64,000 nt of DNA from a virus. The notes beneath the pieces were generated by a model that saw nothing but the letters and a program-made list of their open reading frames with translations, made no database searches and was not told the origin of the DNA. Shown in pieces: positions 1 through 23,680 of this stretch; positions within the stretch are counted from its first letter, which is position 1, and every line of letters starts with the position of its first letter. Both the position numbers and the translations under genes were made by a program. The stretch is taken from IMG/VR virus record IMGVR_UViG_3300045988_162372; one strand, given 5' to 3'.

Positions 1-11
1 TACATCCTCGT

Positions 12-2231
12 ATGGAAAATGGATATCGTGTCATGTTCTATGCTAAAACACCTATGGCATTTTCCAAATTCCAAAAATTCTTTGAAGAAGGTGGAAGACC
101 TATATATCCAAAACCAAGCGACAAAAGTTACGGATTAAGGGATTATATCTGTGTTGCTCCTAATGAACAATATATGATTTCAACAGGAAAAAGAATGTTC
201 AAGGGGTATGAAGATTATGATGACTTGCTACGTCTTGAATGGGACTTGGAAACAGAAGGACTTGACCCAAATATCAATGCCATTTCACAGATTGGTATAA
301 GAACAAACAAGGGTTTTGAAAAAATCATTTCAATTCAAGGCGAAGGTGAAGAAAAACTTGAAAATGAAATGAAAGGTTTATCAGAGTTTTTCCAAATTGT
401 AAGAGAAATACAACCTGATGTAATGACAGGACATAACACAGAGAACTTCGACTGGAATTTTATTGATGTTCGTCTAAAAAAGCGTGGGTTATCCCTTTTC
501 GATTATACACAACAGTTATTTTATGGAAAAGGTATATATAAAAAACAAAAAGAGGCTGTTTTGAAATTAGGAGGGGAAATGGAATATTATTATCCTACTG
601 TAATGTGGGGACATAATCTTACAGATTCTTTATTTGCTGTAAGACGTGCGCAAGCTCTTGATAGTAATATGAAAAAAGCCGATTTGAAGTATGTTACTAA
701 ATATTCAAAACTGAATAAACCCAATCGTGTATATGTACCAGGAAAAGTTATTAATAAAACTTGGAGTGATACATCAAAAACTTATGCTTTTAATAATGAG
801 AATGGTGAATGGTTTAAGATAACAGATGAAATTCTAAACAAAACTTTTATAAATTGTATTGGAGAAAAACTACAAAGATACAGTCTAAATAACGATGGCA
901 CATTACATGATAATAAAGAAAATCGAGATTTTAAATATGTAACAGGACGATACATTGTTGAACGTTATCTTTTGGATGACCTTTATGAAACAGATAAGGT
1001 GGAGCTTCGTTATAATCAATCTAATTTTCTTGTGGGTAAGATGCTTCCTGTGTCATTTGAGAAAATGTGTACAATGGGAACTGCCGCTATATGGAAGTAT
1101 ATTATGCTTGCATGGAGTTACGAACATGATTTAGCAATTCCAGAATTAATTGATACAAAACCGTTTACAGGTGGATTATCACGTTTATTAAAAGTAGGGT
1201 ATGTAGATAGAATTGTAAAATTGGATTTCAATTCACTTTATCCATCTATTATTCTTTCATTTAATATTAAGACACCTGTAGATGTAATGGGTGTTATGAA
1301 TGCTATTCTTGAATACATCTTGACTGAACGTGAATACTATAAAGGATTAAAGGCAGATTTTGGAGCAAAAGCAAAAAAGATAAAGAAACAAATAGAAGTA
1401 AATCCAAATCTTCCAAATATCAAGGAATTAAAAGAAGAGCAACAAAAATACGAAACAGAAGCTGCACGAAATGACAAGATGCAATTGCCTTTAAAGATTA
1501 CTGGTAATGCATTCTTTGGTTCATACGGTTCTGGAAGCGTTTTTCCTCATTCAGATTTGATTTGTGCAGAAGAAACAACTTGTACAGGACGTATGATGTT
1601 GCGACTTATGATTTCGCATTTCACGAGTATTGGATATGAACCTATTGTAGGTGATTCATTTACCGAAGATACTCCTTTATTTATCAAATATAATAATACA
1701 AATGACATTGATATAGTACCAATATCAAAATTGATAAATGAAAAGAAAATTAAAAAGGATAAATTAGATAGGGAGTATGATACCTCTAAAAAAGATTTTA
1801 AGGTATTATGTAGAAGCGGATGGAAAGAAGCCACATATATTTACAGACATAAAACAGATAAGGATATATATCGTATAAATGATAACAATTGTTCTGTTGA
1901 TGTTACAGAAGACCATTCTCTGTTTAATGAAAAACAAGAGAAAGTAATACCAAGCGAAATAAACAAGAATACTAAACTTGAATATTATAATGGTGGAAAT
2001 ATTATATCGAATAAATATACATTCGATAAACGTAAATTAAATATGTGTGCAGTCCTTGCAGCAGGAAATAGAGAACACGCTTTGATAACAAAAGAAGTGC
2101 TTAATAGTACGGTTTCTTGCAAAAAATATTTCTTGGATAGGTTTGAACATTATAGACAACCAAACAAAAAATATTCAAAGCAAATTATAGCTTCATTACA
2201 ATATATTAAAATGTGTGTAGAAAATAGGTAA
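12..2231 (+). CDS. Family B DNA polymerase, N-terminal fragment (3'-5' exonuclease plus palm motifs A and B), ending in a split-intein N-fragment
   Basis: Exo I DLETEGLD, Exo II HNTENFDWNFI, Exo III YLLDDLYETD, motif A LDFNSLYPSII, motif B KITGNAFFGSYGS. Polymerase-like sequence stops at ...EPIVGD (nt 1655). The frame stays open to nt 3, so the true start may lie upstream of the window. Confidence 0.9.
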   Translation: MENGYRVMFYAKTPMAFSKFQKFFEEGGRPIYPKPSDKSYGLRDYICVAPNEQYMISTGKRMFKGYEDYDDLLRLEWDLETEGLDPNINAISQIGIRTNKGFEKIISIQGEGEEKLENEMKGLSEFFQIVREIQPDVMTGHNTENFDWNFIDVRLKKRGLSLFDYTQQLFYGKGIYKKQKEAVLKLGGEMEYYYPTVMWGHNLTDSLFAVRRAQALDSNMKKADLKYVTKYSKLNKPNRVYVPGKVINKTWSDTSKTYAFNNENGEWFKITDEILNKTFINCIGEKLQRYSLNNDGTLHDNKENRDFKYVTGRYIVERYLLDDLYETDKVELRYNQSNFLVGKMLPVSFEKMCTMGTAAIWKYIMLAWSYEHDLAIPELIDTKPFTGGLSRLLKVGYVDRIVKLDFNSLYPSIILSFNIKTPVDVMGVMNAILEYILTEREYYKGLKADFGAKAKKIKKQIEVNPNLPNIKELKEEQQKYETEAARNDKMQLPLKITGNAFFGSYGSGSVFPHSDLICAEETTCTGRMMLRLMISHFTSIGYEPIVGDSFTEDTPLFIKYNNTNDIDIVPISKLINEKKIKKDKLDREYDTSKKDFKVLCRSGWKEATYIYRHKTDKDIYRINDNNCSVDVTEDHSLFNEKQEKVIPSEINKNTKLEYYNGGNIISNKYTFDKRKLNMCAVLAAGNREHALITKEVLNSTVSCKKYFLDRFEHYRQPNKKYSKQIIASLQYIKMCVENR
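1656..2228 (+). other. Split-intein N-fragment (Ser1) with an extra C-terminal tail
   Basis: Begins S-FTEDTPLFI (block A-like [CS]-[LF]-x-x-DT). Contains VDVTEDHSLF (block B TxxH). By eye it parallels DnaE split-intein N-fragments. A TAA stop follows at 2229-2231. The last ~75 aa (ITKEVLNSTVSCKKYFLDRFEH...) may be a decayed endonuclease-domain remnant. Confidence 0.75.
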
Positions 2232-2235
2232 TACT

Positions 2236-2418
2236 TTGACAGAAGAAAAGAGTAAAAATATTTTAGCAAAGAAATATAATTGTCCGCAAAATATATCTGA
2301 ACATGAATTTTGTAAAAGTAAAGGATGGTACAGAATATATGATTGCAGTTGTTTATGCTATAAATGGAAAAAAGTAATAATTAAACAAGAATGTTATGAA
2401 AGTACAAAAAATAAATAA
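2236..2418 (+). pseudogene. Remnant (C-terminal ~45 aa) of a free-standing homing endonuclease gene, lying between the two intein halves
   Basis: SKNILAKKYNCPQNISEHEFCKSKGWYRIYDCSCLCYKWKK aligns with the C-terminus of the 19928..21625 ORF (SKNNMIKKYGLDKKLTEWEMARQLGYDRIWDCGLLKYVWIR). It has a TTG start only and no nuclease core. Confidence 0.65.
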
Positions 2419-2494
2419 GACTGATAAGTATGTTTATGATATTTCACTTGATGGAACAGTTGTAAACGCATTAGGAATGAATATTCTCTCCAAT
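2396..2494 (+). other. Split-intein C-fragment (33 aa, own ATG)
   Basis: MKVQKINKTDKYVYDISLDGTVVNALGMNILSN followed by Thr+1. It resembles known DnaE C-inteins (...VYDIGV...HNF...NG..ASN|C): block F VYDI and a block G terminal SN. Confidence 0.8.
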
Positions 2495-4048
2495 ACAGAT
2501 GGATTTAATTTTCAAATGCCTAAAACATTTCGTTATACTGACGAGCATCCGTATATAAGTGATGGGGGAGGACGCAATAGTGAAAAAGGTAAAAAATATA
2601 CAAAAGTAGATGCAGATGTTGCTGAATTTGAAGACAAGTATTTAAATCACGCCTTTAATGGAGGTATTAATAAAAACGGTCTTGGTATAGATGAATATTG
2701 TAATGCTACCATTAATTTTGCTCGTAAGAATTATGCAGACTTGCTTGATAATGGAAAGATTAAAATGGTTGGAAATACAATCAAATCCAAAAAAATGCCT
2801 ATTTACATTGAAAAATTTTTGAATGAAGCCATAAGACTTTTATTAAATGGTAAAGGCGCAGAATTTCTTGAATATTACTATGATTATGTAGAGAAAATTT
2901 ACAATTTACAAATTCCATTACAAGATATTGCAACTGTTGGTAAAATAAAAGTCAATCTTGATACCTATAAAGCTAATTGCAAGAAATTGACATCAGCAGG
3001 AACTAAGAAAGCAAGACAAGCATGGTATGAGCTTGCAATTAAAGACAATTTAAATGTCAATATGGGCGATGCAATATATTATATCAATGTGGGAAATAAA
3101 AAAGCTACATCAGACATACAAAGAGTGAGCAAATTATATTATATTGATAAAAATGGAAATAAATGCGAGGATTTCATTGATGAAAATGGTGAGGTTGTGT
3201 ATGATAAAAAAGGAAACCCTAGTAATTTTACTAAGAAAATAAAAGCGGAGTATGATAAGCTGAAAAAATCAATGAATAAATCGGTTATAAAGAACATAAA
3301 TGACCCATCCAATACATTTTATACTATACTTGAGTACGCCCAACAGAAATATCCTTTCTTAAAAATTCAGGAAGAAGATGAGATAATATTCAATTGTGTT
3401 AGACTTTCAAATGAAATTGTAGAGGACGAAGAGGAACATTTTTGCACTGCTGATTTTGAATATAATAGGGCAAAATACATCAATATGTTCAACAGTCGTA
3501 TAAGACCCTTGCTTGTATGTTTTGATAAAAAAATCAGAACAAAAATAAACGATAAAGGTAAAGAAGTTGACAACATCTTAATTGATAACCCAAAAGATAG
3601 AAAAGCCTTTACCGAGGATGAAAGTAAACTTGTATCTGGTCAACCATATAACATAAAAGATCAAGACACTTATGAACAACTTATGACTATCGAGGATAAG
3701 GAAATCAAGTTTTGGTTATCAGTTAACAAAACACCACCTTTTGTAAAAGAATGTGGAATTGATTGGGATAAGACTGTTGAAAAATATCAAGAAAGACAGA
3801 AACAACTTGAAAGTGAAGGAGTTAAAGCTGAACTGGAAGAGTATAATAAAATAATTGATTCTTTAAAAGAAAGTGATGTAGAAAAATTCAACGAAACTGG
3901 TGAATTGCCAGATAAGTTAATGAAACTCATTGATATAAATATGGATACATATGACTTCGTTTCAAAGAAATGGGGAGTTATATTAGGAAGTATGTTTGAT
4001 GTACTTGATAAAGATTTTAGTATAAATAGATTTGATGCGGAAGAATGA
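2396..4048 (+). CDS. Family B DNA polymerase, C-terminal fragment (motif C onward, thumb), preceded by the intein C-fragment
   Basis: The C-extein starts TDGFNFQMP at nt 2495. Joined to ...IVGD of the upstream ORF it restores a GDTDG catalytic motif C. The rest has PolB-thumb length and a basic character. Confidence 0.85.
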   Translation: MKVQKINKTDKYVYDISLDGTVVNALGMNILSNTDGFNFQMPKTFRYTDEHPYISDGGGRNSEKGKKYTKVDADVAEFEDKYLNHAFNGGINKNGLGIDEYCNATINFARKNYADLLDNGKIKMVGNTIKSKKMPIYIEKFLNEAIRLLLNGKGAEFLEYYYDYVEKIYNLQIPLQDIATVGKIKVNLDTYKANCKKLTSAGTKKARQAWYELAIKDNLNVNMGDAIYYINVGNKKATSDIQRVSKLYYIDKNGNKCEDFIDENGEVVYDKKGNPSNFTKKIKAEYDKLKKSMNKSVIKNINDPSNTFYTILEYAQQKYPFLKIQEEDEIIFNCVRLSNEIVEDEEEHFCTADFEYNRAKYINMFNSRIRPLLVCFDKKIRTKINDKGKEVDNILIDNPKDRKAFTEDESKLVSGQPYNIKDQDTYEQLMTIEDKEIKFWLSVNKTPPFVKECGIDWDKTVEKYQERQKQLESEGVKAELEEYNKIIDSLKESDVEKFNETGELPDKLMKLIDINMDTYDFVSKKWGVILGSMFDVLDKDFSINRFDAEE

Positions 4049-4314
4049 TGAAAGACAAAATTATAAATAATATAGGTAAAATTATAATACTATCAGCAAT
4101 AGTTATTATTTCTCTTATTTGGATATTTATAGGCTTTAAGAGCGTACTTTTAACTATAGGTGTATTAACTCTACTATCGTACATAAATACAGCTATTACA
4201 ACACTTGGAAATGCCTTTATTGGACGTGATATAAATATGAGTTATGATATATTTTGGAAAATGCTATTCATATTCATAACATCGTTATGTTTTGGAATTT
4301 ACTTTAATATATAA
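4045..4314 (+). CDS. Small membrane protein (about 3 predicted TM helices)
   Basis: Hydrophobic stretches IIILSAIVIISLIWIFIGF, VLLTIGVLTLLSYI and MLFIFITSLCFGIYF. Its ATG overlaps the polB stop (ATGATGA). Confidence 0.55.
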   Translation: MMKDKIINNIGKIIILSAIVIISLIWIFIGFKSVLLTIGVLTLLSYINTAITTLGNAFIGRDINMSYDIFWKMLFIFITSLCFGIYFNI

Positions 4315-4320
4315 AAAAAA

Positions 4321-4353
4321 AATAAGGAAGAGAAAATTAATCTCTTCCTTATT
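4321..4353. terminator. Bidirectional hairpin terminator between convergent genes
   Basis: 13-bp perfect stem AATAAGGAAGAGA / TCTCTTCCTTATT with a 7-nt loop. It is flanked by an A-run, which is a T-run for the minus-strand fibre gene. Confidence 0.75.
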
Positions 4354-4374
4354 AGGTATGTGATGACACTCTAA

Positions 4375-5862
4375 TTAGTATGTTCCACAATCAAATACAG
4401 CATCTGCCTTCATACCAATACCTTCCGCAGATACTTCAATCATAGGATCAGAAGGTTTAGCTACGGCTGTGATGGTTTTTTCAGTACCGTCTCCACTTAC
4501 ATTGATACCCTTACCTGCAACCACTGAAATAGCTGCATCCCTAACAGCATCAATAGCATCAGCATTCGCTTTAGCCTGAGTGTCAAGCTGAGTAATAGCA
4601 TCCATAACAGAAGTAGCGTCATTGACATACGTTGCACCGACAGGAGCAGTAAATGTGCCATCTGTGCCAAGACCAACAGAAGCCTCTACTTTATCAATAG
4701 CAGCTTGAACTCCCTGTTTAGCAGCATCAATAGCAGCTTGAACTCCACTCAGCTTAATACCATCAGCACCAACTGTCAAGAATGCTTCAGTTGAACCGTC
4801 AAGTTTTGCAGCAATAACTTTTCCACTAACAGAAATACCATCGCCTGCTGTATAAACATCAATCAAAGAGGTTACATTAAGGTTGATAACTTTGTCTCCT
4901 GCATCAGTATTGAATGTGAATACCAAGAATGTGCCACTTTGAGCTTCACCAACAGGCTGGTCAGCAGAAGCGGTTTTTAATTCAACATTTTGAAGCATTC
5001 CATCTTTAATGAAATCAGTGGCAGCAATAGTTGCAATTGCAGCACCATCCTTACCAATTAATTTCAAGCCGTCAGATTTGCTCCAAGTCAAGTTAATGTT
5101 AGCAAGTAAACCATCCGTAGTCTGAGTTAAAACTTTATCAGCAGTATTAAGTTTTAAAGAGATTGTCTTTTCACCTTCATTTTCTTCTGATACTGCAATA
5201 GCGTCTTGCCCTACATATTGTACGAGGGCAGCACTTGCAACACTCATAACACCAGTTTCTCCATTAACAACGATAGTAGTGCCATCAACATTTGCTTTCA
5301 AGTCAATGCCACCGTCTGCGCCATCACCGATAACAACAGTTTTGTTATTAGAAGTAATAGCACCACGTTTTACAGCAATTTTACCGTCTGTTTCTGATAC
5401 TTCGGTAACAAAACTTTTTGCAACAGCAGTATCTGCAACATCAAGAGCTTGAACAGCGGCTGTAATTTGGCCATCGGCATAATCTTTTGCATCTTGTTCA
5501 GCTTTTGAGATTGAGCCTTCACCACTTCCATTAATTTTTACCAATGCATCAGCAATTTTCTTAATAGTGTCATAAGCATCATCAATTGCTGAATCCTCAC
5601 CACCTTTAATGGCAGCAATGGCAGCATCAAGAGCATCCTGTACCTCAGAAGGAATAGCATCAGCATCAAAGATTGTATAATCTTCAGCACCTTTAATACC
5701 AAATAAAACCTTTTCAGGTTTAATATCTGTGTCACCGCCACCGTAGGTAGCGATTGCAGGTTCACCGACAGCAGCAGTAGCTAAATAAGCTTTAAGACCA
5801 TTTAAAGCTGCTGTTTTGTTTTCATAATTTACATGTCTTTTTAGTTGTAATGTATAAGCCAT
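4375..5862 (-). CDS. Tail fibre protein (Ala/Gly/Thr-rich)
   Basis: N-terminal anchor-like motif ...GEPAIATYGG, shared with the next fibre gene (GEPTLYFYGD). One copy of the LIDVYTAGDGISVSG...FLTVGADGIKLSG module shared with the other fibres. Confidence 0.7.
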   Translation of the reverse strand: MAYTLQLKRHVNYENKTAALNGLKAYLATAAVGEPAIATYGGGDTDIKPEKVLFGIKGAEDYTIFDADAIPSEVQDALDAAIAAIKGGEDSAIDDAYDTIKKIADALVKINGSGEGSISKAEQDAKDYADGQITAAVQALDVADTAVAKSFVTEVSETDGKIAVKRGAITSNNKTVVIGDGADGGIDLKANVDGTTIVVNGETGVMSVASAALVQYVGQDAIAVSEENEGEKTISLKLNTADKVLTQTTDGLLANINLTWSKSDGLKLIGKDGAAIATIAATDFIKDGMLQNVELKTASADQPVGEAQSGTFLVFTFNTDAGDKVINLNVTSLIDVYTAGDGISVSGKVIAAKLDGSTEAFLTVGADGIKLSGVQAAIDAAKQGVQAAIDKVEASVGLGTDGTFTAPVGATYVNDATSVMDAITQLDTQAKANADAIDAVRDAAISVVAGKGINVSGDGTEKTITAVAKPSDPMIEVSAEGIGMKADAVFDCGTY

Positions 5863-5951
5863 TGTAGTATTATAATTAAATTAATTATCTTATTATTAAT
5901 ATAATTGGTAATCTATTTTTCAAGACCACCAATTATAATTATTATTAAATT

Positions 5952-8900
5952 TTAGGAATTACTTCCATATTCACCAAAATCAATCAAATTATTTATGATT
6001 TCTTCAATCGTTGCCAATCTTTCAGCCACACTAGGCTTGCCTTCTTCTGGTTCACCTATTTGTTCCTTGATTTGGTTAATAGTTTGATTGATAGTGTTAA
6101 TATTATTATTAACAGTTGTCAAATCACCTTCCAATTTTGAAATTCTATTTTCATAGCCTTCAACTTGATTACTCAATTCGGTAAACTGATTAGAGAGATT
6201 AGTAACTTGACTTCCTAGTTCAGTAACTTGTGTTGTTAAGTTATTGATAGCACCCGTATTCTGTGCAATGTTTTGTGTATTCTGTTCAACCTTAGTCTGT
6301 AAATTAGTAACATTGCCTTGAAGGACTGTGATATCGCTCTTAGCCTGTGCCATATCAGACTTCAAAGTATCAACGTCAGAAACAAGTCCTGCAACTTTAT
6401 CAGTTTCAGTTTTCAAATTTTCAATTGCTTTCTGAACAGTAACTTCATCGCCACCCCATAAGGCTGTCAATTTACTTGCCTCATTGCTCATATAAAGTGT
6501 ACCGTTGTTGTTCAATATACCATTATGAGCTTCTGTTGAAATGGCTAACCTTGCACGTAAAATATCAACGTTGTCTGCACCAGCTGTTTTGGTTAATGTA
6601 ATAGGATTATCAGTTCCATTATCAATAGTCCATTCATTTACTATATCTCCAACTGGTATAGAAATTTGCTGTGTTTCACCACCATCTTTAGCAATAGTTA
6701 GAACAATGCTTTGTGTTACACTATCATAATGTCCCTCTTGAACTAGTGAATGTTCGGATAGTGTAAATTTAGATTTTTCATTACCATTAACAATCAAGGC
6801 AATGCTATTCTCAGCCTTATTATAATTCAATGCTATAGAAGAATAAACACCATTACCATCAAGCTTGATAATATTATCTTCGGTTGTGTTGAGTTTTAAA
6901 TCAGCTTTCAATGTTGTACCACCGTCAGCTTTACTTGCAGTCAAAGCAATTGAATTTGTTTCAGAAGTGATAATATTTAATCTTCTATCTTCTGCTTGCA
7001 ATAAGCTAACATTAGTTTCAATCGCAGTTGCTCTATCTTCAAGTGCATCAATAGCGTCAGCATTTAACTTTTCAGCAATTTGCGCTCTGGATGTTTCATC
7101 TGCGACATCTGTTTTCGTTGCGTAATCGCTTAAATCAACAGAGGTAAGATAACCTTTTTTATCAATTTCTTCTTTCGTATATACATCCGCAGAATTAGCT
7201 TTTTTCTCCAACCCTCTATCAGCATACTCCTTAGCTTGAGTTAAGGCATTATCAGCTTTTGTTGTAGCATCAGTGGCAGCGGTAGCAATTGCATTATCTT
7301 GAGCTTCCTGTGTTTTAGTGTCAATAGTTCCATTAAGAGTATCAATTGCAGCATCAATACCATTTATGCTTACACCGTCAGCACTTACTGTCAGATATTT
7401 TTCTGACAATGTTGCTTTTCTTACTGAGAATGTATTTGCGGACAAAGACATACCATCACCTGCTGTATAAGTGTCAACCAAATCAGAAATATCAACTTCA
7501 ATAGGTTGCTCATGTTCATTTTCAGTCTTGAAAATGAATTGAAGTTTATGAGAAGCATTATCATAATTTACAGATTTCAAGAATTGGTCTTGTGGAATGT
7601 TAATATCACCTGCAACAACACCATCAACCAGTACTTGATAATGCAAATCATTTGCTTCATCTTTTACAACTTCGACACTTTCAATCTTTGTTGCAAGACT
7701 TGTTTCAAGCTCTTTATCTTTGGCTTTCAACTCTTCAATTGAGGTAGATAAATTTCCTTCATTTGTCTCAAGTTTTGCAATCTCACTATCCGTGTATGCT
7801 TTTGCATCAGTTAAAACTTTTTCATCCTTAGCAACATAATCAGCTACCAGTTTATCTTCAAGAGCATCATTTGCATTATGAATATCACTGGTTACTGTAG
7901 TGTAATTCTTAGCGATCTCACTATCAGTATAAGCCTTTGCATCAACCAATGCCTTATCAGCTTTAGATGTCGCATCAGAAGAAGCAGTATTAACAGCATC
8001 AGTTTTTGCATTACTGATTTCAGCTTGCAATTCAAGTTTGGCTGTGCCAAGTTGTGTATCAGTATATGTTTTCGATTCGGCAATAGCACTACTAACCTGA
8101 GAAGCGACACTACTCGTTAAATCATTAATTCTTTCATGTAATGCGCTTTCAGCATTTTCTGCACGTTGCTGTTCGGCTTGAATACCCTGATTTAAAGTAT
8201 CATATGTGTATTTCAACATATATCTTACAGAATTTGGGGTATTCTCATCAGCATTTAACGAATCAATAGCTTTCTTGTTTTCCTCTACACTTGTTCTAAG
8301 TGTTTCAATAGCATTTGTATTAGCAGAAATTAAATTAGCATTTGCTAATTCAGCAGCCTTTGCTCTTTCACTTTCTTGTGTAATATTTTCTTGTAGCCTA
8401 GCTTCAACACCAGTTGCTCTTTCTGTTTCAACTGCAATAGCATTATCAATTGTACTCTTGGGAGCAAGTAATTCGCCATTTCCATTGATAGATAAAATAT
8501 TGTCGTTAGAGGCTAATCGAAATGCGGTTGTAACGACTTTTTCTGTGCTTCTTGTGTTATCACTTACTTGGAATACGACAGGGCTTGATGTATTGTTTTC
8601 AAATCTATAAATGGTAATTAATCCACTCATAGGAATTCTTACAGTATTCCCGTTGTTGAATTCAATTACAAGTTCCTGTGTAACACTATCATAATAAGCA
8701 TTGTCAATAAAATCAACACCAGGAAGTTCAACCTCTTTTGTAACATTACCAGTTCTTACAATCAATTTATTAGATGCAATATCACAGGTAATTTCAATAT
8801 CAACTTCCAAACCGCCATCTTTATGGATAATAGTTTTATTACCTCCAAGCCTCACACCACCAGAAATTCTGTAACCAACATTGGTTTCTTTTGTTGCAGT

Positions 8901-19927: not shown

Positions 19928-21625
19928 TTATCTTTCATTTCTTATCCAAACATATTTTAATAATCCGCAATCCCATATTCTATCATATCCTAACTGTCTT
20001 GCCATTTCCCATTCGGTTAATTTCTTATCTAGGCCATATTTTTTTATCATATTATTTTTTGATAAGATCATTTTATGAATTCGTTTATTTCCATGAATAT
20101 GAGAATTATAATATTTATAGTCAGGCTTTAATATTTTTGATAAATGAAAACCTATATGTGTATATAAATTATCATTTTCATCAACAGTCCATCTTCTATC
20201 AGCAAAAGAAGTTATCATATTAGAATTGTAATTCTTAATAAAGTAAGAGAATAATTTTCCACCGATACCAACACAATGATAATTGTAATTAGTTGCAAAT
20301 CTATTTAATTCCCATTCTTTGATTTTAACACTTCCATGTTTAAAAGTCATCACCCCAATTAATTCATTATTGTAATAACACCCAAGATATACTGTTGACG
20401 GAGCAAATCCTTGAATGTGATATTTGTTTAGGAATTCTTCAGCCTGATATTTATATATTTCTTTAACCGTACATTTACGAGCATATATTTTATTAACAGA
20501 GTGATTTATATGTAAAATATGTGCTATTTTACTCATAACAATATCGTGTTTTTCGATAAATTCATCATCAAAAATTTGAATTAATTTTATACCTTGTGCA
20601 TTACATTCATTTAATTTATTTAAATGATAATTTTTATCCTTACCAAATCTTTCACAATGCCAATATAAACCGTTATACTCAATAGCAACTCTTTTTTCTG
20701 GAACATATATATCAATTTCTCTTCCATTCAATATACCTCTATCTTTATGACATTCTAAATTATTATTATTAATAAAACTAATAATTTCTTTTTCAGCAGC
20801 AGAAGTATATTTTTCAATACCTTTTTCGCTTAATACTAAATTATTCTTTTGTGCTATTGCTCGAAATTTAGACAGTGTATCGGCACACATTATACCTTCT
20901 TTGCCATATCTTAAAATATATTCTTCTTTTGTAATTCCATGAAATTTCAGATGGGCATTACTTATCTTTGTTAGTTTTTTCCCACATATTTTACAAGTAA
21001 TAAATTTATTAGCATCATCCTCCATTTGCCTATTTTTAATAGGATTGGCAATTTGAAAATATTTTTTTTCTTCTGGAAAATTTTTAATGTAATCAAATTT
21101 AGATATATTGTGAACACTTTTTAGATGTTGCTCAAAAGCACCACTTTTGTTTTCAACATCACTTGTAACCCATTCACAAAATGGACATTTCTTAACAGGC
21201 TTATTTTCTACTTTTCTATACGACAACCATTGTTCCCACCAATAATTACCAGTTTTCATATAATACATTCTTCTATCATACAATGTTGGTATTTCAACAT
21301 TGTATTGTTTTTTAATATAAGACGTTAAAACACCGCCATTATTATTAATGTCACAAGATTTGAATTCTGTATTTTTATCAAAAACTTCATAATGGTAATC
21401 ATTAGTATCAATATACTTTTTTATATGATAATCCTTAACCACAAATGCATCATTATTATTTTGTCCACCTCTTTTTTTAAATTGAATACCATTCTGAGAA
21501 AGTATTTGTTTAATTCTAAGTTTCCCCACATGATATTTAAGGGCTAAGGTTTCAATACCAATTTTACTATTAAGATATTCATCACAAATAATCTTTTCAT
21601 CAAGTATAGCTTTTGTTTTCGACAT
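19928..21625 (-). CDS. Free-standing homing endonuclease-like protein (HTH + two zinc-finger-like motifs + Vsr/PD-(D/E)xK-like core + C-terminal domain)
   Basis: GREIDIYVPEKRVAIEYNGLYWH...KLIQIFDDEF (Vsr/DUF559-like). CPFCEW...HLKSVH and CKICGK...HLKFH fingers. C-terminus GYDRIWDCGLLKYVW. I prefer the start at MSKTK (ATG 21625) over the track start 21724, because a TATCTTTG box lies at 21653-21660. Confidence 0.7.
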   Translation of the reverse strand: MSKTKAILDEKIICDEYLNSKIGIETLALKYHVGKLRIKQILSQNGIQFKKRGGQNNNDAFVVKDYHIKKYIDTNDYHYEVFDKNTEFKSCDINNNGGVLTSYIKKQYNVEIPTLYDRRMYYMKTGNYWWEQWLSYRKVENKPVKKCPFCEWVTSDVENKSGAFEQHLKSVHNISKFDYIKNFPEEKKYFQIANPIKNRQMEDDANKFITCKICGKKLTKISNAHLKFHGITKEEYILRYGKEGIMCADTLSKFRAIAQKNNLVLSEKGIEKYTSAAEKEIISFINNNNLECHKDRGILNGREIDIYVPEKRVAIEYNGLYWHCERFGKDKNYHLNKLNECNAQGIKLIQIFDDEFIEKHDIVMSKIAHILHINHSVNKIYARKCTVKEIYKYQAEEFLNKYHIQGFAPSTVYLGCYYNNELIGVMTFKHGSVKIKEWELNRFATNYNYHCVGIGGKLFSYFIKNYNSNMITSFADRRWTVDENDNLYTHIGFHLSKILKPDYKYYNSHIHGNKRIHKMILSKNNMIKKYGLDKKLTEWEMARQLGYDRIWDCGLLKYVWIRNER

Positions 21626-21652
21626 ATCTAATACATTTTTAATTTTACAATG

Positions 21653-21660
21653 CAAAGATA
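21653..21660 (-). promoter_or_regulatory. Bacteroidota-type -7 box TATCTTTG for the endonuclease gene
   Basis: The reverse complement of caaagata reads AGTATCTTTGCATTG, about 28 nt upstream of ATG 21625. Confidence 0.55.
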
Positions 21661-21726
21661 CTATTTTTATACCAAACATACAAATGAAAACCCATTTATT
21701 TTCGTTAAAAAAATATATAAACAAAA

Positions 21727-21787: not shown

Positions 21788-23680
21788 TTAACGTAATTCG
21801 TTAATATTCCAATACGTTAAACCATCTACCTTAATAGCACCATAGTATTTGTTATTAACAAGTTTCTTTGCGTAACGTGTCACAATTCCTTTTACAGGTG
21901 CAAAGTTGAAGGGGTTATACATTGTTGGGGTTAATGCCATAGGCACATAAGGTGCATAGATATAGCCAGTGTCAAGCAACGAAGTACCGTGGTGTCCCAT
22001 AATCAAGCTCCAATGAGGTGCATACGGGTCAACAATTACTTGATAACGTCCTTGAAGTGCGCCAATCTTTTCGATACCCATGTTATACTGCATACTTTCA
22101 GCACTTGCATCTGTTACGTGGAAATATTCCAAGTCATTCAACACAGCAGAAATTTCAGCAGAAACTACAATAAACGAAGCACCACCACGAAGTGTAGATT
22201 TTTGGATTTGAGCAGAAATCTTATTGATTTGTGTCATAAGAGTCTGGTTCCAGTCTTTCTGTGTATAGACAGTTGAAGGAGTACCAATTCTTTGCCATCC
22301 ATTGTAATCCCAACGTAATTGCCAAGCAGCGGCCTTACGAATATCTCTTAAAATTTCACGGTCAATCTCGGCAGCAATCTGTTCAGAGAGAATTGCAGTC
22401 AATTCTGCTTCTGCATCTATATTATGGAAAGCACTCACATCCTGTGCAAGTTCAGGAGACCAAGTAGCACGAAGCTTTCTTTCCTCAACCGATACAGATA
22501 CGGAAGTAAGTTGGAACGAAACTTCACCCATATCAGTTTCCAATTCAAGGCTATCATACTGTGCCCAAGCAATCTTGAACAAATCATCAGGCTGTTTGTC
22601 AGCTAATTGTGTAGGATCTACACCAATATAACCGAGCATTGTCTGACCCTGTTTTTTAGCAGGTTTAGTTAAATCAAGTTCAATATAAAGCTTACCATTA
22701 GCATCACAAATGTTCTGATAATCCACCATTTGTGTACCATACTTCTGTGTCATAACACGGAAAGGAATTGATTCATTAGCAGCAAATGAAGTGAAATCAT
22801 CACCGCCGTCAATAGCTTCTTTAGTAATAACTTTCAATGAAGCAAGGAAAGCTTCAGTATCCATTTCATTACCATCTGGGCCAGTCAAACGACCTGCATT
22901 GTAAGAACTGAAACCAGTTACTTCAAGCAGTAACGAACTAATAGAACCGTTAGAATCTGTAGGATAATCATCCAAATCAGCAGCTACATAATCACCGTTA
23001 GGTGCAAGCATAACCACTGTTGAATTCCCAACACGGATAGTAACTTTACCTTTTGAATTATCAAACAAGAAGTCATTATAGAACAAATCATAAAGAGATT
23101 TCTTCATGTATTTTGTGACTTCAGGTTTCTGCACCATTGTGCCAGTACCATCATCTTCCCAAGCAGGTTTTACAACCTCATCAGGCAAGTAATACTGATT
23201 CTTGGTTTCCCAAGTTCTTTCATCATTGGCATCAAATGCCTGGCCATTGTAGAAACGGTTTTGAGCTTTATAACCCATCAAGCCTACATGCTTACCAGTA
23301 TCACCATTAGAAATCTGACCGTCTTCCGCATAAGTCCATTCTCTTTCAGATGTTACGGGTTTAATGAAGAACAATTTACCGATAGGTAAGTTCATAGCTT
23401 GTACTGATACAATGTCATTAGCAAGCAATTTAGAGAATACACGTCTGATAAGAGGGAATACGACTGTTTCAAACGAACCAGAGTTATCAGAACCAGTAGC
23501 TTCATAAATAAGGTGCTTTGCGTTGTTTTCATAAAGGGTTGCAATTGTTTCCTTTACATGTCCTTGCAAGCCTTCCAACAGATGAAGCTTTTCCCATCTT
23601 TCCTGTATATCTTGTCTAATTTTTTTCTGTGCATTAAGTTCAATTGAACCAACTGCTCCACTATTTAATAGTTCTCGCAT
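21788..23680 (-). CDS. Major capsid protein, T4 gp23-like
   Basis: IRRVFSKLLANDIVSVQAMNLPIGKLFF, RKLRATWSPELAQDVSAFHNIDAEAELTAILSEQIAAEIDREI and GYIYAPYVPMALTP...FAPVKGIVTRYA all parallel remembered T4 gp23 segments. Confidence 0.9.
   Translation of the reverse strand: MRELLNSGAVGSIELNAQKKIRQDIQERWEKLHLLEGLQGHVKETIATLYENNAKHLIYEATGSDNSGSFETVVFPLIRRVFSKLLANDIVSVQAMNLPIGKLFFIKPVTSEREWTYAEDGQISNGDTGKHVGLMGYKAQNRFYNGQAFDANDERTWETKNQYYLPDEVVKPAWEDDGTGTMVQKPEVTKYMKKSLYDLFYNDFLFDNSKGKVTIRVGNSTVVMLAPNGDYVAADLDDYPTDSNGSISSLLLEVTGFSSYNAGRLTGPDGNEMDTEAFLASLKVITKEAIDGGDDFTSFAANESIPFRVMTQKYGTQMVDYQNICDANGKLYIELDLTKPAKKQGQTMLGYIGVDPTQLADKQPDDLFKIAWAQYDSLELETDMGEVSFQLTSVSVSVEERKLRATWSPELAQDVSAFHNIDAEAELTAILSEQIAAEIDREILRDIRKAAAWQLRWDYNGWQRIGTPSTVYTQKDWNQTLMTQINKISAQIQKSTLRGGASFIVVSAEISAVLNDLEYFHVTDASAESMQYNMGIEKIGALQGRYQVIVDPYAPHWSLIMGHHGTSLLDTGYIYAPYVPMALTPTMYNPFNFAPVKGIVTRYAKKLVNNKYYGAIKVDGLTYWNINELR

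Follow-up and report, generated by a model that had tools for sequence, protein, structure and literature searches.

Fractured genes were described from GOS metagenomes by Dassa, London, Stoddard, Schueler-Furman and Pietrokovski in 2009, with gp41-1, NrdJ-1, IMPDH-1 and DnaE loci among them (PMC2677866). In these DNA-metabolism genes a conserved motif is broken between two adjacent same-strand ORFs, each with one half of an intein, and a Vsr-like or GIY-YIG homing endonuclease gene (HEG) lies between the halves; the accompanying model foresees eventual loss of the HEG (PMC2677866). Here we describe a family-B DNA polymerase (PolB) gene with the same anatomy at the left end of a 64,000-nucleotide viral sequence (the window, meaning the whole stretch analysed). 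It shares with the fractured genes the motif break, the paired ORFs and a Vsr-like HEG, whose family matches I-Bth0305I, the structural representative of theirs. However, a family-B polymerase lies outside their eight enzyme types (PMC2677866), the HEG of the window has been deleted to a stump, its N-fragment carries a 79-aa LAGLIDADG relic where theirs are minimal inteins, and contiguous sister inteins exist for direct comparison. A text search of that paper finds neither 'LAGLIDADG' nor 'remnant'.

Split-intein PolBs are already known from MIJ3, Aes123 and Nanoarchaeum. In Pseudomonas jumbo phage vB_PaeM_MIJ3, a Ser1 split intein likewise divides PolB within motif C, and a free-standing HEG separates the halves (Imam et al. 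2019, PMC6892783). This HEG (orf154, annotated HNH) belongs to the window HEG family: the two share 35% identity over 265 aa (E 3e-36) and the C-terminus ...GYGRIWDSG.... However, the MIJ3 intein is inserted at GDTD|S, two residues past the GD|TDG site of the window, its N-fragment stops ~116 aa into the intein without a helical tail, its C-fragment has a long N-terminal extension, and similarity between the inteins is confined to block B. Cysteine-less natural split PolB inteins comprise Aes123 PolB1, CP21 PolB1, LCGC14 PolB2 and GOM-OPS-1 PolB2 (PMC11923092, PMC12707363), and trans-splicing in vitro has been demonstrated for such related inteins (PMC11923092, PMC12707363); an atypically split intein, PolB16 OarG, comes from a sheep gut metagenome (PMC10189870). 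Like the window, the cysteine-less inteins combine Ser1 with Ser/Thr+1 oxyester chemistry and an R/K-His NX motif in phage-type PolB, and are split at the homing-endonuclease position; their C-inteins are 39-46 aa long. Aes123 (9hth) matches the window family at a profile E of about 1e-4 and a Foldseek probability of 0.99-1.0. Nevertheless, the cysteine-less sequences are only remotely related, and their N-inteins (115-120 aa) have no endonuclease relic.

Nanoarchaeum equitans Neq Pol (PDB 5oxz, 5oxx) is a family-B polymerase with a naturally split Ser1 intein, and is the best structural match of our N-fragment model (TM 0.69-0.72, target-normalised; probability 1.0; identity 22%). Unlike the window, it is archaeal, its halves are unlinked in the genome, and it has neither HEG nor relic domain. 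Its intein we take to be located at D|TD of motif C as well. At the identical site, IVGD|S...N|TDG, PolBs of related phages have contiguous LAGLIDADG inteins (P0009, P0084, P0109, P0111, P0119; L057, L059-L069) of 339-359 aa that match Pfam Intein_splicing and LAGLIDADG_3. Both of their splicing halves are homologous to those of the window, their LAGLIDADG helices align with its tail, and one (L057) is sister to all split forms on the N-intein tree. They differ in being one ORF with a complete endonuclease domain of ~215 aa, a penultimate His and no free-standing HEG.

The features of the window are as follows, with the evidence for each in brackets.

1..1655, + strand: PolB N-extein, partial (translation; Pfam DNA_pol_B / DNA_pol_B_exo1; alignment with uninterrupted PolBs)
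1656..1991, + strand: splicing (HINT) half of the N-intein, 112 aa (homology to same-site contiguous inteins; residues; AF2 model; Foldseek; dN/dS)
1992..2228, + strand: helical tail of the N-fragment, 79 aa (hhalign; MAFFT columns; AF2 helices; conservation; dN/dS)
2229..2231, + strand: TAA stop of the N-fragment ORF (position kept across the family, 175-201 aa past the intein start)
2232..2395, + strand: 164-nt spacer, stump of a deleted free-standing Vsr-like HEG (blastn against L002)
2236..2418, + strand: 60-codon ORF in a third frame, TTG start (3′ end of the deleted HEG)
2396..2494, + strand: C-intein fragment, 33 aa (homology to contiguous inteins; near-invariant motif; strands of the fused model)
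2495..4048, + strand: PolB C-extein, 517 aa plus stop (collinear with uninterrupted PolBs)
19928..21724, - strand: intact free-standing paralogue of the deleted HEG, Vsr-like (EDxHD / I-Bth0305I family) (PDB, PHROG, Pfam, homology)

Translation bears out the first-pass annotation. Exo I-III and motifs A and B all lie in the N-extein, which also reaches halfway into motif C (...IVGD); polymerase-like sequence ends at EPIVGD (nt 1638-1655, + strand), and the ORF runs on directly at nt 1656 as S-FTEDTPLFI...VDVTEDHSLF to the TAA at 2229-2231. The second ORF (550 aa, ATG at 2396) opens with the 33-aa C-intein fragment, followed by TDGFNFQMP, in which Thr+1 (2495-2497) and the rest of TDGFNF supply what motif C lacks. 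Joining 1655 to 2495 gives IVGDTDGFNF, so that the predicted removal of the intein does restore a motif absent from either ORF. The joined protein aligns with uninterrupted PolBs (~1143 aa) over 99-100% of the length at 60-68% identity, and a Salinibacter phage PolB aligns through the junction. The first ORF is still open at the left window edge, the ATG at nt 12 not being its start; the complete N-ORF, read from L001, is 842 aa with an N-extein of 651 aa. Because the N-ORF extends beyond the window, the ligated product would be 651 + 517 = 1168 aa, which corrects an earlier figure of ~1060 aa.

That the two fragments are intein halves, as first proposed, is borne out by homology and by predicted structure. 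The N-intein splicing half is 39-45% identical to the contiguous LAGLIDADG inteins of the same site (E to 1e-30), and the C-intein is 47-57% identical to their C-termini. An AF2 model of the N-intein and its tail is a beta-rich HINT half (pLDDT 90.1, pTM 0.82) whose best Foldseek matches are NeqN/NeqC, PI-TkoII and Aes123 PolB1. A fused N- and C-intein model (pLDDT 83.3) has inteins as its best 39 PDB matches, with E to 1.5e-5, and places beta-strands in the C-intein at 204-208, 213-215 and 219-222; confidence in the C-intein part is low (pLDDT 41-68) because few sequences covered it. The family profile matches the Aes123 PolB1 intein 9hth (E 4e-5 to 9.5e-5) and 8/23 family members match Pfam Intein_splicing; on the other side, the window's own two fragments match no Pfam intein model and their single-sequence PDB matches are marginal.

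The residues of splicing are in place. Ser1 (1656-1658), Arg64-His65 (1845-1850) and block B Thr84..His87 (1905-1916) lie in the N-intein; S1, H65, T84 and H87 are invariant in 30 relatives, and R64-H65, invariant or nearly so, fits the NX motif known from Ser1 inteins (PMC10189870). The C-intein MKVQKINKTDKYVYDISLDGTVVNALGMNILSN starts at ATG 2396 and ends at nt 2494, with block F Asp15 at 2438-2440 and block G closing on Ser32-Asn33, the terminal Asn at 2492-2494. Its motif YVYDISLDGTVVNALGMN..SN is nearly invariant across 40 split loci and the 90% cluster of the window, and D206, N224 and T225 (joined-intein numbering) are invariant among relatives. A likeness to DnaE C-inteins had been suggested; it goes no further than the generic block F/G pattern.

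We therefore favour, with a probability of about 85%, a fractured PolB gene in which two adjacent same-strand ORFs with a natural split intein are rejoined by trans-splicing; anatomy, the same-site inteins and ~55 split loci agree on this. Both ORFs would probably be carried on one transcript and translated separately. The two intein pieces are expected to dock into a complete HINT fold. Class-1 oxyester splicing may follow, in which Ser1 would undergo an N-O shift, transesterification would move the ester to Thr+1 and the terminal Asn would cyclise. The product would be a PolB of ~1168 aa whose catalytic GD-TDG hairpin is formed only by ligation. An unlikely alternative is that the intein halves act as a non-covalent dimerisation module in a two-chain polymerase, comparable to the split gp43 known in some T4-like phages or to Aeh1 NrdA, which assembles through HEG-derived interaction domains. 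Split polymerases and a split RNR that work ligation-free are documented (discussion of Dassa 2009, PMC2677866; PMC3045599), and the penultimate residue of the C-intein is Ser instead of the usual His. Against this, all residues that the chemistry requires beyond docking (Ser1, TxxH, R-H, Asp, Asn, Thr+1) are invariant at ~50% divergence. Moreover, the break falls within motif C, between its pair of catalytic aspartates (GD|TD), and therefore an unremoved 224-aa insert would occupy the active-site hairpin.

The tail of the N-fragment is a relic of two LAGLIDADG core helices and one following helix, without the catalytic acidic residues or beta-saddle. Tail-only and endonuclease-only profiles align in hhalign against the LAGLIDADG region (Prob 94.8%, E 5e-8), and MAFFT columns pair KRKLNMCAVLAAGN of the tail with REAWLFGFFMADG of the LAGLIDADG domain and CKKYFLDRFEHY with KKAFLDGFCCGDG. 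Its helices (125-137, 146-149, 153-166, 175-189) are modelled at pLDDT 91-97. The tail had been suggested to be a fossil endonuclease domain; the ancestry holds, but it is not merely fossil, being folded, conserved (open, with a common end point, in about 55 loci) and under purifying selection (dN/dS 0.06-0.38). With it the N-fragment reaches 191 aa, whereas characterised split inteins have 100-120 aa, a difference that counts against the trans-splicing reading.

The spacer retains the stump of an endonuclease gene, as the first-pass annotation had recognised. In blastn, window 1-2258 corresponds to 3346-5603 of its closest relative, L002 (98.5%), and window 2251-4100 to L002 7339-9191 (95.8%). 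L002 5604-7338 is therefore missing from the window: a clean deletion of 1735 bp, with 8-bp microhomology AGTAAAAA at its junction (2251-2258), which takes out a 626-aa HEG save its 3′ end. Where it matches the C-terminus of this HEG, the 60-codon ORF is 86% identical over 35 aa, and its identity to the C-termini of about 14 other gap HEGs is 60-75%; it is probably a leftover, non-functional as a gene.

Some 55 independent IMG/VR loci show the same split, as do many ENA/Logan assemblies. Between the halves most of the loci have a free-standing Vsr-like HEG of the I-Bth0305I family, or two of them; related phages also have uninterrupted PolBs and contiguous-intein alleles. The source genomes are gut/rumen-type jumbo phages of ~350 kb (contigs of 312-363 kb, 32% G+C). 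Thirteen contigs of up to 363 kb, from different samples, carry an identical C-ORF, which belongs to a 90% cluster of 286 members, and for the 191-aa N-intein piece there are 146 homologues, mostly at 97-100% coverage; such recurrence is far beyond chance. Within one 90% cluster the HEG is intact (633 aa, L081 and L082), broken (369 + 227 + 29 aa, L080), a stump (window and L001) or wholly absent (18-nt gap, L083-L085), and both polymerase ORFs are intact at every stage. We hypothesise that the ancestral state was a contiguous LAGLIDADG intein at the same PolB site, that a Vsr-like free-standing HEG entered its endonuclease-coding part and split it, and that the N-fragment kept the old LAGLIDADG helical core as an appendage that still folds without being catalytic. 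A recent 1.7-kb deletion in the window lineage would then have left the 164-nt stump, so that the window catches a fractured PolB just after loss of its selfish endonuclease gene.

The plain decay or deletion of the HEG might also suggest that the whole locus is a decaying pseudogene, an intein-containing PolB broken by mutation while another polymerase replicates the genome. This is very improbable: hundreds of assemblies and ~55 diverged loci keep both ORFs intact, the N-ORF stop position is conserved, dN/dS is 0-0.06 in the extein and 0.05-0.39 in the intein parts (the N-intein splicing half spanning 0.05-0.39 in close pairs), and in 32% G+C DNA the 79-codon tail would close without selection.

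More doubtful still is a joining of the ORFs before or during translation, by a group I intron with a HEG, frameshifting or ribosomal bypass, and subsequent cis-splicing of the intein. Vsr-like HEGs do also reside in group I introns (PMC2677866), and bypass-like short stop-containing gaps occur elsewhere in the PolB gene of related phages. However, an Rfam scan of nt 1-6000 returned no intron at E <= 1, neither terminator, structured RNA nor Rfam intron was found between the halves, and nt 2200-2420 fold no better than shuffles (z 0.44). Each of the three frames has several stops from 2229 to 2396, and in relatives the gap is anywhere between 18 nt and 4.6 kb long, with the ATG of the C-intein ORF always at the same place. 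An assembly or sequencing artefact inside one continuous intein, for which the A-rich region with its homopolymer runs could be cited, is negligible in probability, given an independent ENA assembly identical to the window through 4100 nt, the recurrence of the exact C-ORF in different samples and of the split in relatives from different projects, and the uninterrupted state of the window's other long ORFs.

Lastly, the intact paralogue (19928..21724, - strand; probable ATG at 21625) lies just downstream of the major head protein gene. It matches PDB 3r3p (I-Bth0305I, E 1e-4) and phrog_3339 'homing endonuclease' (E 1.6e-94), has weak Pfam matches (Vsr, ROS_MUCR, Mom), and is homologous to 34 ORFs between split PolB halves of other loci (E to 7e-99). 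The resemblance of the 60-codon ORF to the end of this gene had been noted over ~45 aa; the match is real (41% identity, E 3e-8), but spans its last 39 aa.

Re-reading of the window matched exactly the coordinates and sequences that the first-pass annotation had given at the split of the family-B DNA polymerase (PolB). The two halves lie on separate ORFs in different frames (1..2231 and 2396..4048), each in frame with its own extein, and are laid out as follows.

N-ORF, + strand: Exo I (DLETEGL), Exo II (NTENFDWNF) and Exo III (YLLDDLYETD)
N-ORF, + strand: motif A (DFNSLYPSI) and motif B (KITGNAFFGSYG)
nt 1655, + strand: end of the polymerase-like part at EPIVGD, followed by SFTEDTPLFI...VDVTEDHSLF
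2229-2231, + strand: TAA stop of the N-ORF
2236..2418, + strand: 60-codon ORF in the third frame, beginning with TTG
2396, + strand: ATG of the 550-aa C-ORF, whose first 33 residues are MKVQKINKTDKYVYDISLDGTVVNALGMNILSN, followed by TDGFNFQMP

Because the N-ORF extends without a stop to the left edge of the window, the ATG at nt 12 lies inside it and is not its start. Its complete form, 842 aa long, is present in L001 (3308-5836), an ENA contig 100% identical over 4100 nt. Therefore, the N-extein is 651 aa and the ligated product would be 651 + 517 = 1168 aa, not the ~1060 aa originally proposed.

When conceptually spliced, the polymerase can be aligned across 99-100% of its length with thousands of PolBs encoded by a single ORF; the closest are 60-68% identical and typically 1143 aa long. 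All of these read ...PIVGDTDGFNFQMP... at the junction, where nt 2495-2512 of the window encode an uninterrupted TDGFNF, and the alignment also runs through the junction with the PolB of a Salinibacter phage. This end-to-end alignment of the joined protein bears out the proposal that the two ORFs are halves of one PolB. Genes for a major head protein, portal and tail fibre within the window give a phage context, and contigs bearing the split PolB gene are 312-363 kb. A blastn search of nt 1-4100 against 50,697 phage records returned no match, and thus no cultured close relative in that collection. Gene callers give the halves as a truncated polymerase and a ‘hypothetical protein’; therefore the essential polymerase of abundant ~350-kb phages is easily misread as broken.

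The interpretation of the insert as an intein is upheld by homology to contiguous inteins at the same site, by predicted fold and by invariant catalytic residues. Among the best PolB relatives, five (about 1500 aa) have a contiguous insertion of 339-358 aa at exactly IVGD|S...HN|TDG, and twelve IMG/VR loci contain the same kind of insertion. These contiguous relatives carry the Pfam families Intein_splicing (PF14890) and LAGLIDADG_3 (PF14528). In tblastn searches of the window, residues 1-112 of the contiguous inteins match nt 1656-1991 (39-45% identity, E to 1e-30) and their last 28-36 residues match nt 2411-2494 (47-57% identity).

The catalytic residues are invariant among aligned relatives that are only 40-55% identical. 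Ser1 (nt 1656-1658), directly after the N-extein, is invariant in 30/30 and 23/23 aligned relatives. T84 and H87 of block B/N3 (T84-E-D-H87, nt 1905-1916; Thr-x-x-His) are likewise invariant. Within Y-I-Y-R64-H65-K, H65 never varies, and R64 is either invariant too or conserved at 90% or more; HMMER aligns the pair with the K-H of the Aes123 intein. R64-H65 conforms to the NX motif, a His preceded by Arg or Lys that is a signature of Ser1 inteins (Pasch et al. 2023, PMC10189870). On the C-terminal side, D15, N33 and T+1 of the C-ORF (D206, N224 and T225 of the fused sequence) are the block F Asp, the block G Asn and the +1 residue, and are invariant in 23 sequences. In two relatives the terminal Asn is replaced by Gln (L010:7358-7456, ..NVLKQ|TDG; L057:5001-6047, ..NVVAQ|TDG). 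The penultimate His of block G, common but not universal, is present in the contiguous relatives, whereas the window and at least 90% of the split relatives have Ser there. DnaE split inteins likewise end in ...ASN.

Structure prediction was in agreement. AlphaFold2 modelled the 191-aa N-intein fragment (IntN) with a pLDDT of 90.1, a pTM of 0.82 and a beta-rich N-terminal part, and Foldseek matched this model best in the PDB to the NeqN/NeqC split PolB intein, PI-TkoII and the Aes123 PolB1 split intein (probability 0.99-1.0). In the fused two-fragment model (pLDDT 83.3 overall) the C-intein is modelled at low confidence (41-68) because only six rows of the alignment cover it; the top 39 PDB matches of this model are all inteins, with E values down to 1.5e-5. 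The check for a HINT fold thus came out in favour, with models at pLDDT 90 and 83 matching PDB inteins, and the two pieces together are predicted to adopt this horseshoe fold.

Profile searches gave a more divided answer to the expectation of intein HMM support. Eight of 23 relatives match PF14890 (best E 2.9e-5), albeit below the gathering score, but the window's own N-fragment, tail, middle ORF and C-ORF match no intein or endonuclease family in Pfam, and neither intein-bearing piece has a match in PHROGs. Single-sequence searches of the PDB were marginal (E 0.02-0.9), and profiles were needed; a family profile recovered the chain of the Aes123 intein (E 4e-5 to 9.5e-5). With the N-intein as tblastn query, the 50,697 phage records yielded only block-B-level matches, to MIJ3-like and SCTP-2 PolBs. 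A 40-aa C-junction query returned nothing useful on the insertion sites of the Aes123, Neq and Tko inteins, and motif-level insertion sites are not stated by Novikova 2016.

The split form is present in about 55 of the 78 loci found by a scan of IMG/VR. In about 55/78 loci the N-ORF stops 175-201 codons after Ser1; downstream on the same strand, at a distance of 28 nt to 4.6 kb, the C-intein ORF begins in every case at a Met of its own, some 33-38 residues ahead of ...SN|TDG. Moreover, the ATG of the C-ORF is kept throughout the cluster to which the window belongs. Database searches recovered 146 homologues of the 191-aa fragment; most span 97-100% of its length, and all end a few residues past a conserved ...SKT..AG.q[YF][IL]K motif. 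In a tree of IntN sequences the split forms are one clade whose sister is the contiguous intein of L057, a topology that fits a single splitting event. Comparison of close relatives in pairs put dN/dS at 0.05-0.39 in the splicing core, at 0.06-0.38 in the tail and at 0-0.06 in the extein. Typical split inteins have an IntN of about 100-120 aa and an IntC of 35-40 aa (PMC11923092); the 33-aa IntC of the window fits this pattern, and its 191-aa IntN (175-201 aa across the family) is oversized because of a 79-aa relic at its end. Judged across these loci, the split is real, old and widespread.

Taken together, the anatomy of the split gene is essentially certain. The splicing chemistry we infer, and we put the probability that the split intein is functional in trans-splicing at about 0.85. 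Ligated PolB of ~1168 aa would then contain a junction peptide spanning ...GYEPIVGDTDGFNFQMPK. The only serious rival is that the two halves assemble non-covalently, with no peptide ligation. We disfavour this, as residues needed only for the chemistry are invariant and the break falls between the two catalytic aspartates of motif C. Among the explanations that we reject, a pseudogene runs against the observed conservation and dN/dS. RNA splicing is opposed by the variable gaps set against a constant IntC start, by the lack of any group I or II intron in an Rfam search of nt 1-6000 (E <= 1) and by an RNA fold of 2200-2420 no better than that of shuffled sequences. Frameshifting or read-through would meet several stops in every frame; stop-codon reassignment would have to contend with the TAA stop, the differing frames and several stops of all three kinds between the halves; and an assembly artefact is discounted by independent, identical assemblies. 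A sigma-70 promoter scan found a 10/12 match at 2236-2264, for a consensus that is uninformative for the probable Bacteroidota host.

In most split loci, the gap between the halves contains one or two plus-strand ORFs of 300-640 aa. Of these, 34 are homologous (E down to 7e-99) to a 598-aa ORF elsewhere in the window (19928..21724, minus strand). This ORF matches phrog_3339 ‘homing endonuclease’ (E 1.6e-94) and, across its E-x-N-G-x-Y-W-H region, the catalytic domain of I-Bth0305I (PDB 3r3p, E 1e-4), the structural representative of the Vsr-like (EDxHD) family first described in fractured genes (PMC2677866, PMC3239194). We place this intact, free-standing paralogue and the remnant in the gap in the Vsr-like I-Bth0305I (EDxHD) family of homing-endonuclease genes (HEGs). 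The paralogue sits directly downstream of the major head protein gene (21788-23680, minus strand), and has additional N-terminal matches resembling ROS/MucR-type and BED-type zinc fingers and a Mom/GNAT-like C-terminal half.

The HEG is intact in L002 (the closest relative), L081 and L082, as it is in the majority of 44 related loci. The window has no complete free-standing HEG between the halves, only a 164-nt stump. Window 1-2258 corresponds to L002 3346-5603 (98.5%) and window 2251-4100 to L002 7339-9191 (95.8%), which leaves a clean 1735-bp deletion with 8 bp of microhomology (AGTAAAAA). [quoted passage not shown] Within the same 90% protein cluster the HEG is intact at 633 aa (L081, L082), broken into 369 + 227 + 29 aa (L080), or absent, with 18 nt between the halves (TAA TAATTAAAAAGAAATATT ATG; L083-L085). 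The polymerase ORFs of 842/850 aa and 550 aa are intact in all of these states; therefore, splitting is independent of the current presence of an endonuclease. By comparison with its relatives the window is a derived, HEG-less state of a fractured gene, and it is the ‘endonuclease lost’ stage proposed by Dassa et al.

The 79-residue tail that ends the N-fragment had been suggested to be a fossil endonuclease domain, and profile comparison sustains this. A tail-only profile matched a profile of the endonuclease region of the contiguous inteins with 94.8% probability (E 5e-8), pairing ...DRVP..ILN...K.F...F...SKT..AGLq[YF][IL]K of the tail with ...KKVPEFILNAKKEVKKAFLDGFCCGDG...QKSKVAMAGLYFLLKEL of the contiguous form. 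Independently, MAFFT placed KRKLNMCAVLAAGN under REAWLFGFFMADG. AlphaFold2 predicts helices in the tail at 125-137, 146-149, 153-166 and 175-189 (pLDDT 91-97); two of these, 125-137 and 153-166, fall on LAGLIDADG motifs 1 and 2, with which the tail aligns. The window tail has lost the catalytic acidic residues (ADG to AGN, GDG to EHY), along with some 100 aa that separated the helices, some 40 aa that followed them and the beta-sheet DNA-binding saddle. On these alignments the tail is the helical core of a former LAGLIDADG domain, a relic and not an endonuclease.

We argue that the tail is kept by selection, because it is conserved, has dN/dS <0.4 and keeps its frame open in about 55 AT-rich loci. 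A further reading, which we regard as rather doubtful, is that the 79-aa relic is a selected module (for example a folded solubility cap or association tuner) in a clade that preserves all the stages. Were it true, the clade would hold a contiguous LAGLIDADG intein, HEG invasion, HEG decay and HEG loss in living populations, and how split inteins arise without a lethal intermediate would become directly testable.

The system is of a known kind. The fractured genes of Dassa et al. 2009 likewise comprise two adjacent same-strand halves, each with a split-intein half, separated by a free-standing HEG of the Vsr-like or GIY-YIG family, and family-B polymerase is not among their host genes (PMC2677866). 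The closest cultured analogue is the Pseudomonas jumbo phage MIJ3 (PMC6892783), in which a Ser1 split intein divides PolB within motif C and an endonuclease gene separates the two parts. However, the MIJ3 insertion site is two residues further downstream (GDTD|S) and its N-fragment, unlike that of the window, has no tail. MIJ3 orf154 (L094:3670-5352) is annotated ‘HNH homing endonuclease III’. From its ELDIYVP..AIEYNGLYWH motif, and from 35% identity over 265 aa (E 3e-36) to the Vsr-like HEG of the window, it appears instead to be a member of the I-Bth0305I/Vsr-like family. The cysteine-less split PolB inteins Aes123, CP21, LCGC14 and GOM-OPS-1, from T4-like phages and metagenomes, trans-splice, with N-fragments of 115-120 aa compared with 191 aa here (PMC11923092, PMC12707363). 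The best structural match is the Neq Pol intein of Nanoarchaeum. What is distinct here is the LAGLIDADG relic giving a 191-aa N-fragment, the contiguous sister inteins and the population-level HEG series.

For the origin of split inteins, the locus provides a population-level natural series for the gene-breaking model of Dassa. A single 90%-identical phage cluster contains the HEG intact, broken, as a stump and absent, and a contiguous LAGLIDADG intein is sister to the split family. To our knowledge, earlier evidence for the model consisted of end states only. Moreover, natural Ser1/Thr+1 split inteins are scarce, and their ability to work without reducing agents makes them desirable tools for protein engineering (PMC11923092, PMC12707363). 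The present family is large and diverse (146 N-fragments) and bears an unusual folded appendage on a usually aggregation-prone fragment.

On comparison of the related loci, the split-PolB locus is a rearrangement hotspot. In L086:4001-4519 and L088:4001-4519 (protein P0252) the gap contains an additional ORF of 172 aa ahead of two endonuclease genes in tandem (513 and 628 aa); this ORF is a degenerate duplicate of the N-intein and LAGLIDADG relic that lacks a Ser1 context and has lost block B. In P0157 (L089:1165-1692) an apparent degenerate C-intein-like segment (..NALNMNLIDN) is fused to a degenerate N-intein and relic. Downstream, a 483-aa reverse-transcriptase gene (Pfam RVT_1, minus strand) adjoins the polymerase at L080:5954-7405, L081:5954-7405 and L082:5974-7425, three sister genomes from the same 90% cluster as the window. 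At that place the window (4375-5862, minus strand) and L083 have an unrelated Ala/Gly-rich ORF of 495-512 aa that matches no family.

Lastly, in nine related split loci a stop codon, variously TAA, TAG or TGA, ends the C-intein ORF directly after ...SN|TDG. After a further 0-3 nt comes a second Gly codon, from which the polymerase resumes as GFNF... These Gly-stop-Gly sites are at:

L012:7681-7710
L014:7660-7686
L016:7474-7503
L020:5828-5856
L027:3708-3737
L029:6591-6620
L031:2248-2277
L034:6594-6623
L038:7334-7362

Their sequences are GGT TAA GGT, GGC TAG CTA GGT, GGC TGA ATA GGY, GGC TGA AA GGT, GGC TGA AT GGT and GGT TAA AT GGT. A pattern scan of IMG/VR found none beyond the loci already identified. 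The polymerase resumes in the same frame in five of the nine loci and in a shifted frame in four. Eight have no canonical in-frame start at the beginning of the post-stop part; the exception, L038, has an in-frame ATG one codon past the second Gly. The post-stop part is intact for 476-516 codons in eight loci and is under strong purifying selection (dN/dS about 0.05-0.07, synonymous sites saturated). In L020:5845-6160 only 104 codons follow before another stop, which suggests a further interruption of the C-extein. Loci with the element are scattered on the intein tree, and among L029, L031 and L034 it is far more alike than the flanking extein; therefore, the element travels with the mobile intein cassette. 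One reading is that these loci encode a three-piece enzyme with a 3-aa C-extein. The other starts from the sequence of the Gly-stop-Gly element, which looks like a miniature take-off, stop and landing bypass site; there, a hop by peptidyl-tRNA-Gly over the stop would restore TDGFNF exactly. Such a hop recalls the bypass of T4 gene 60, described in a 2022 preprint as encoded by a mobile element (10.1101/2022.08.31.505936).
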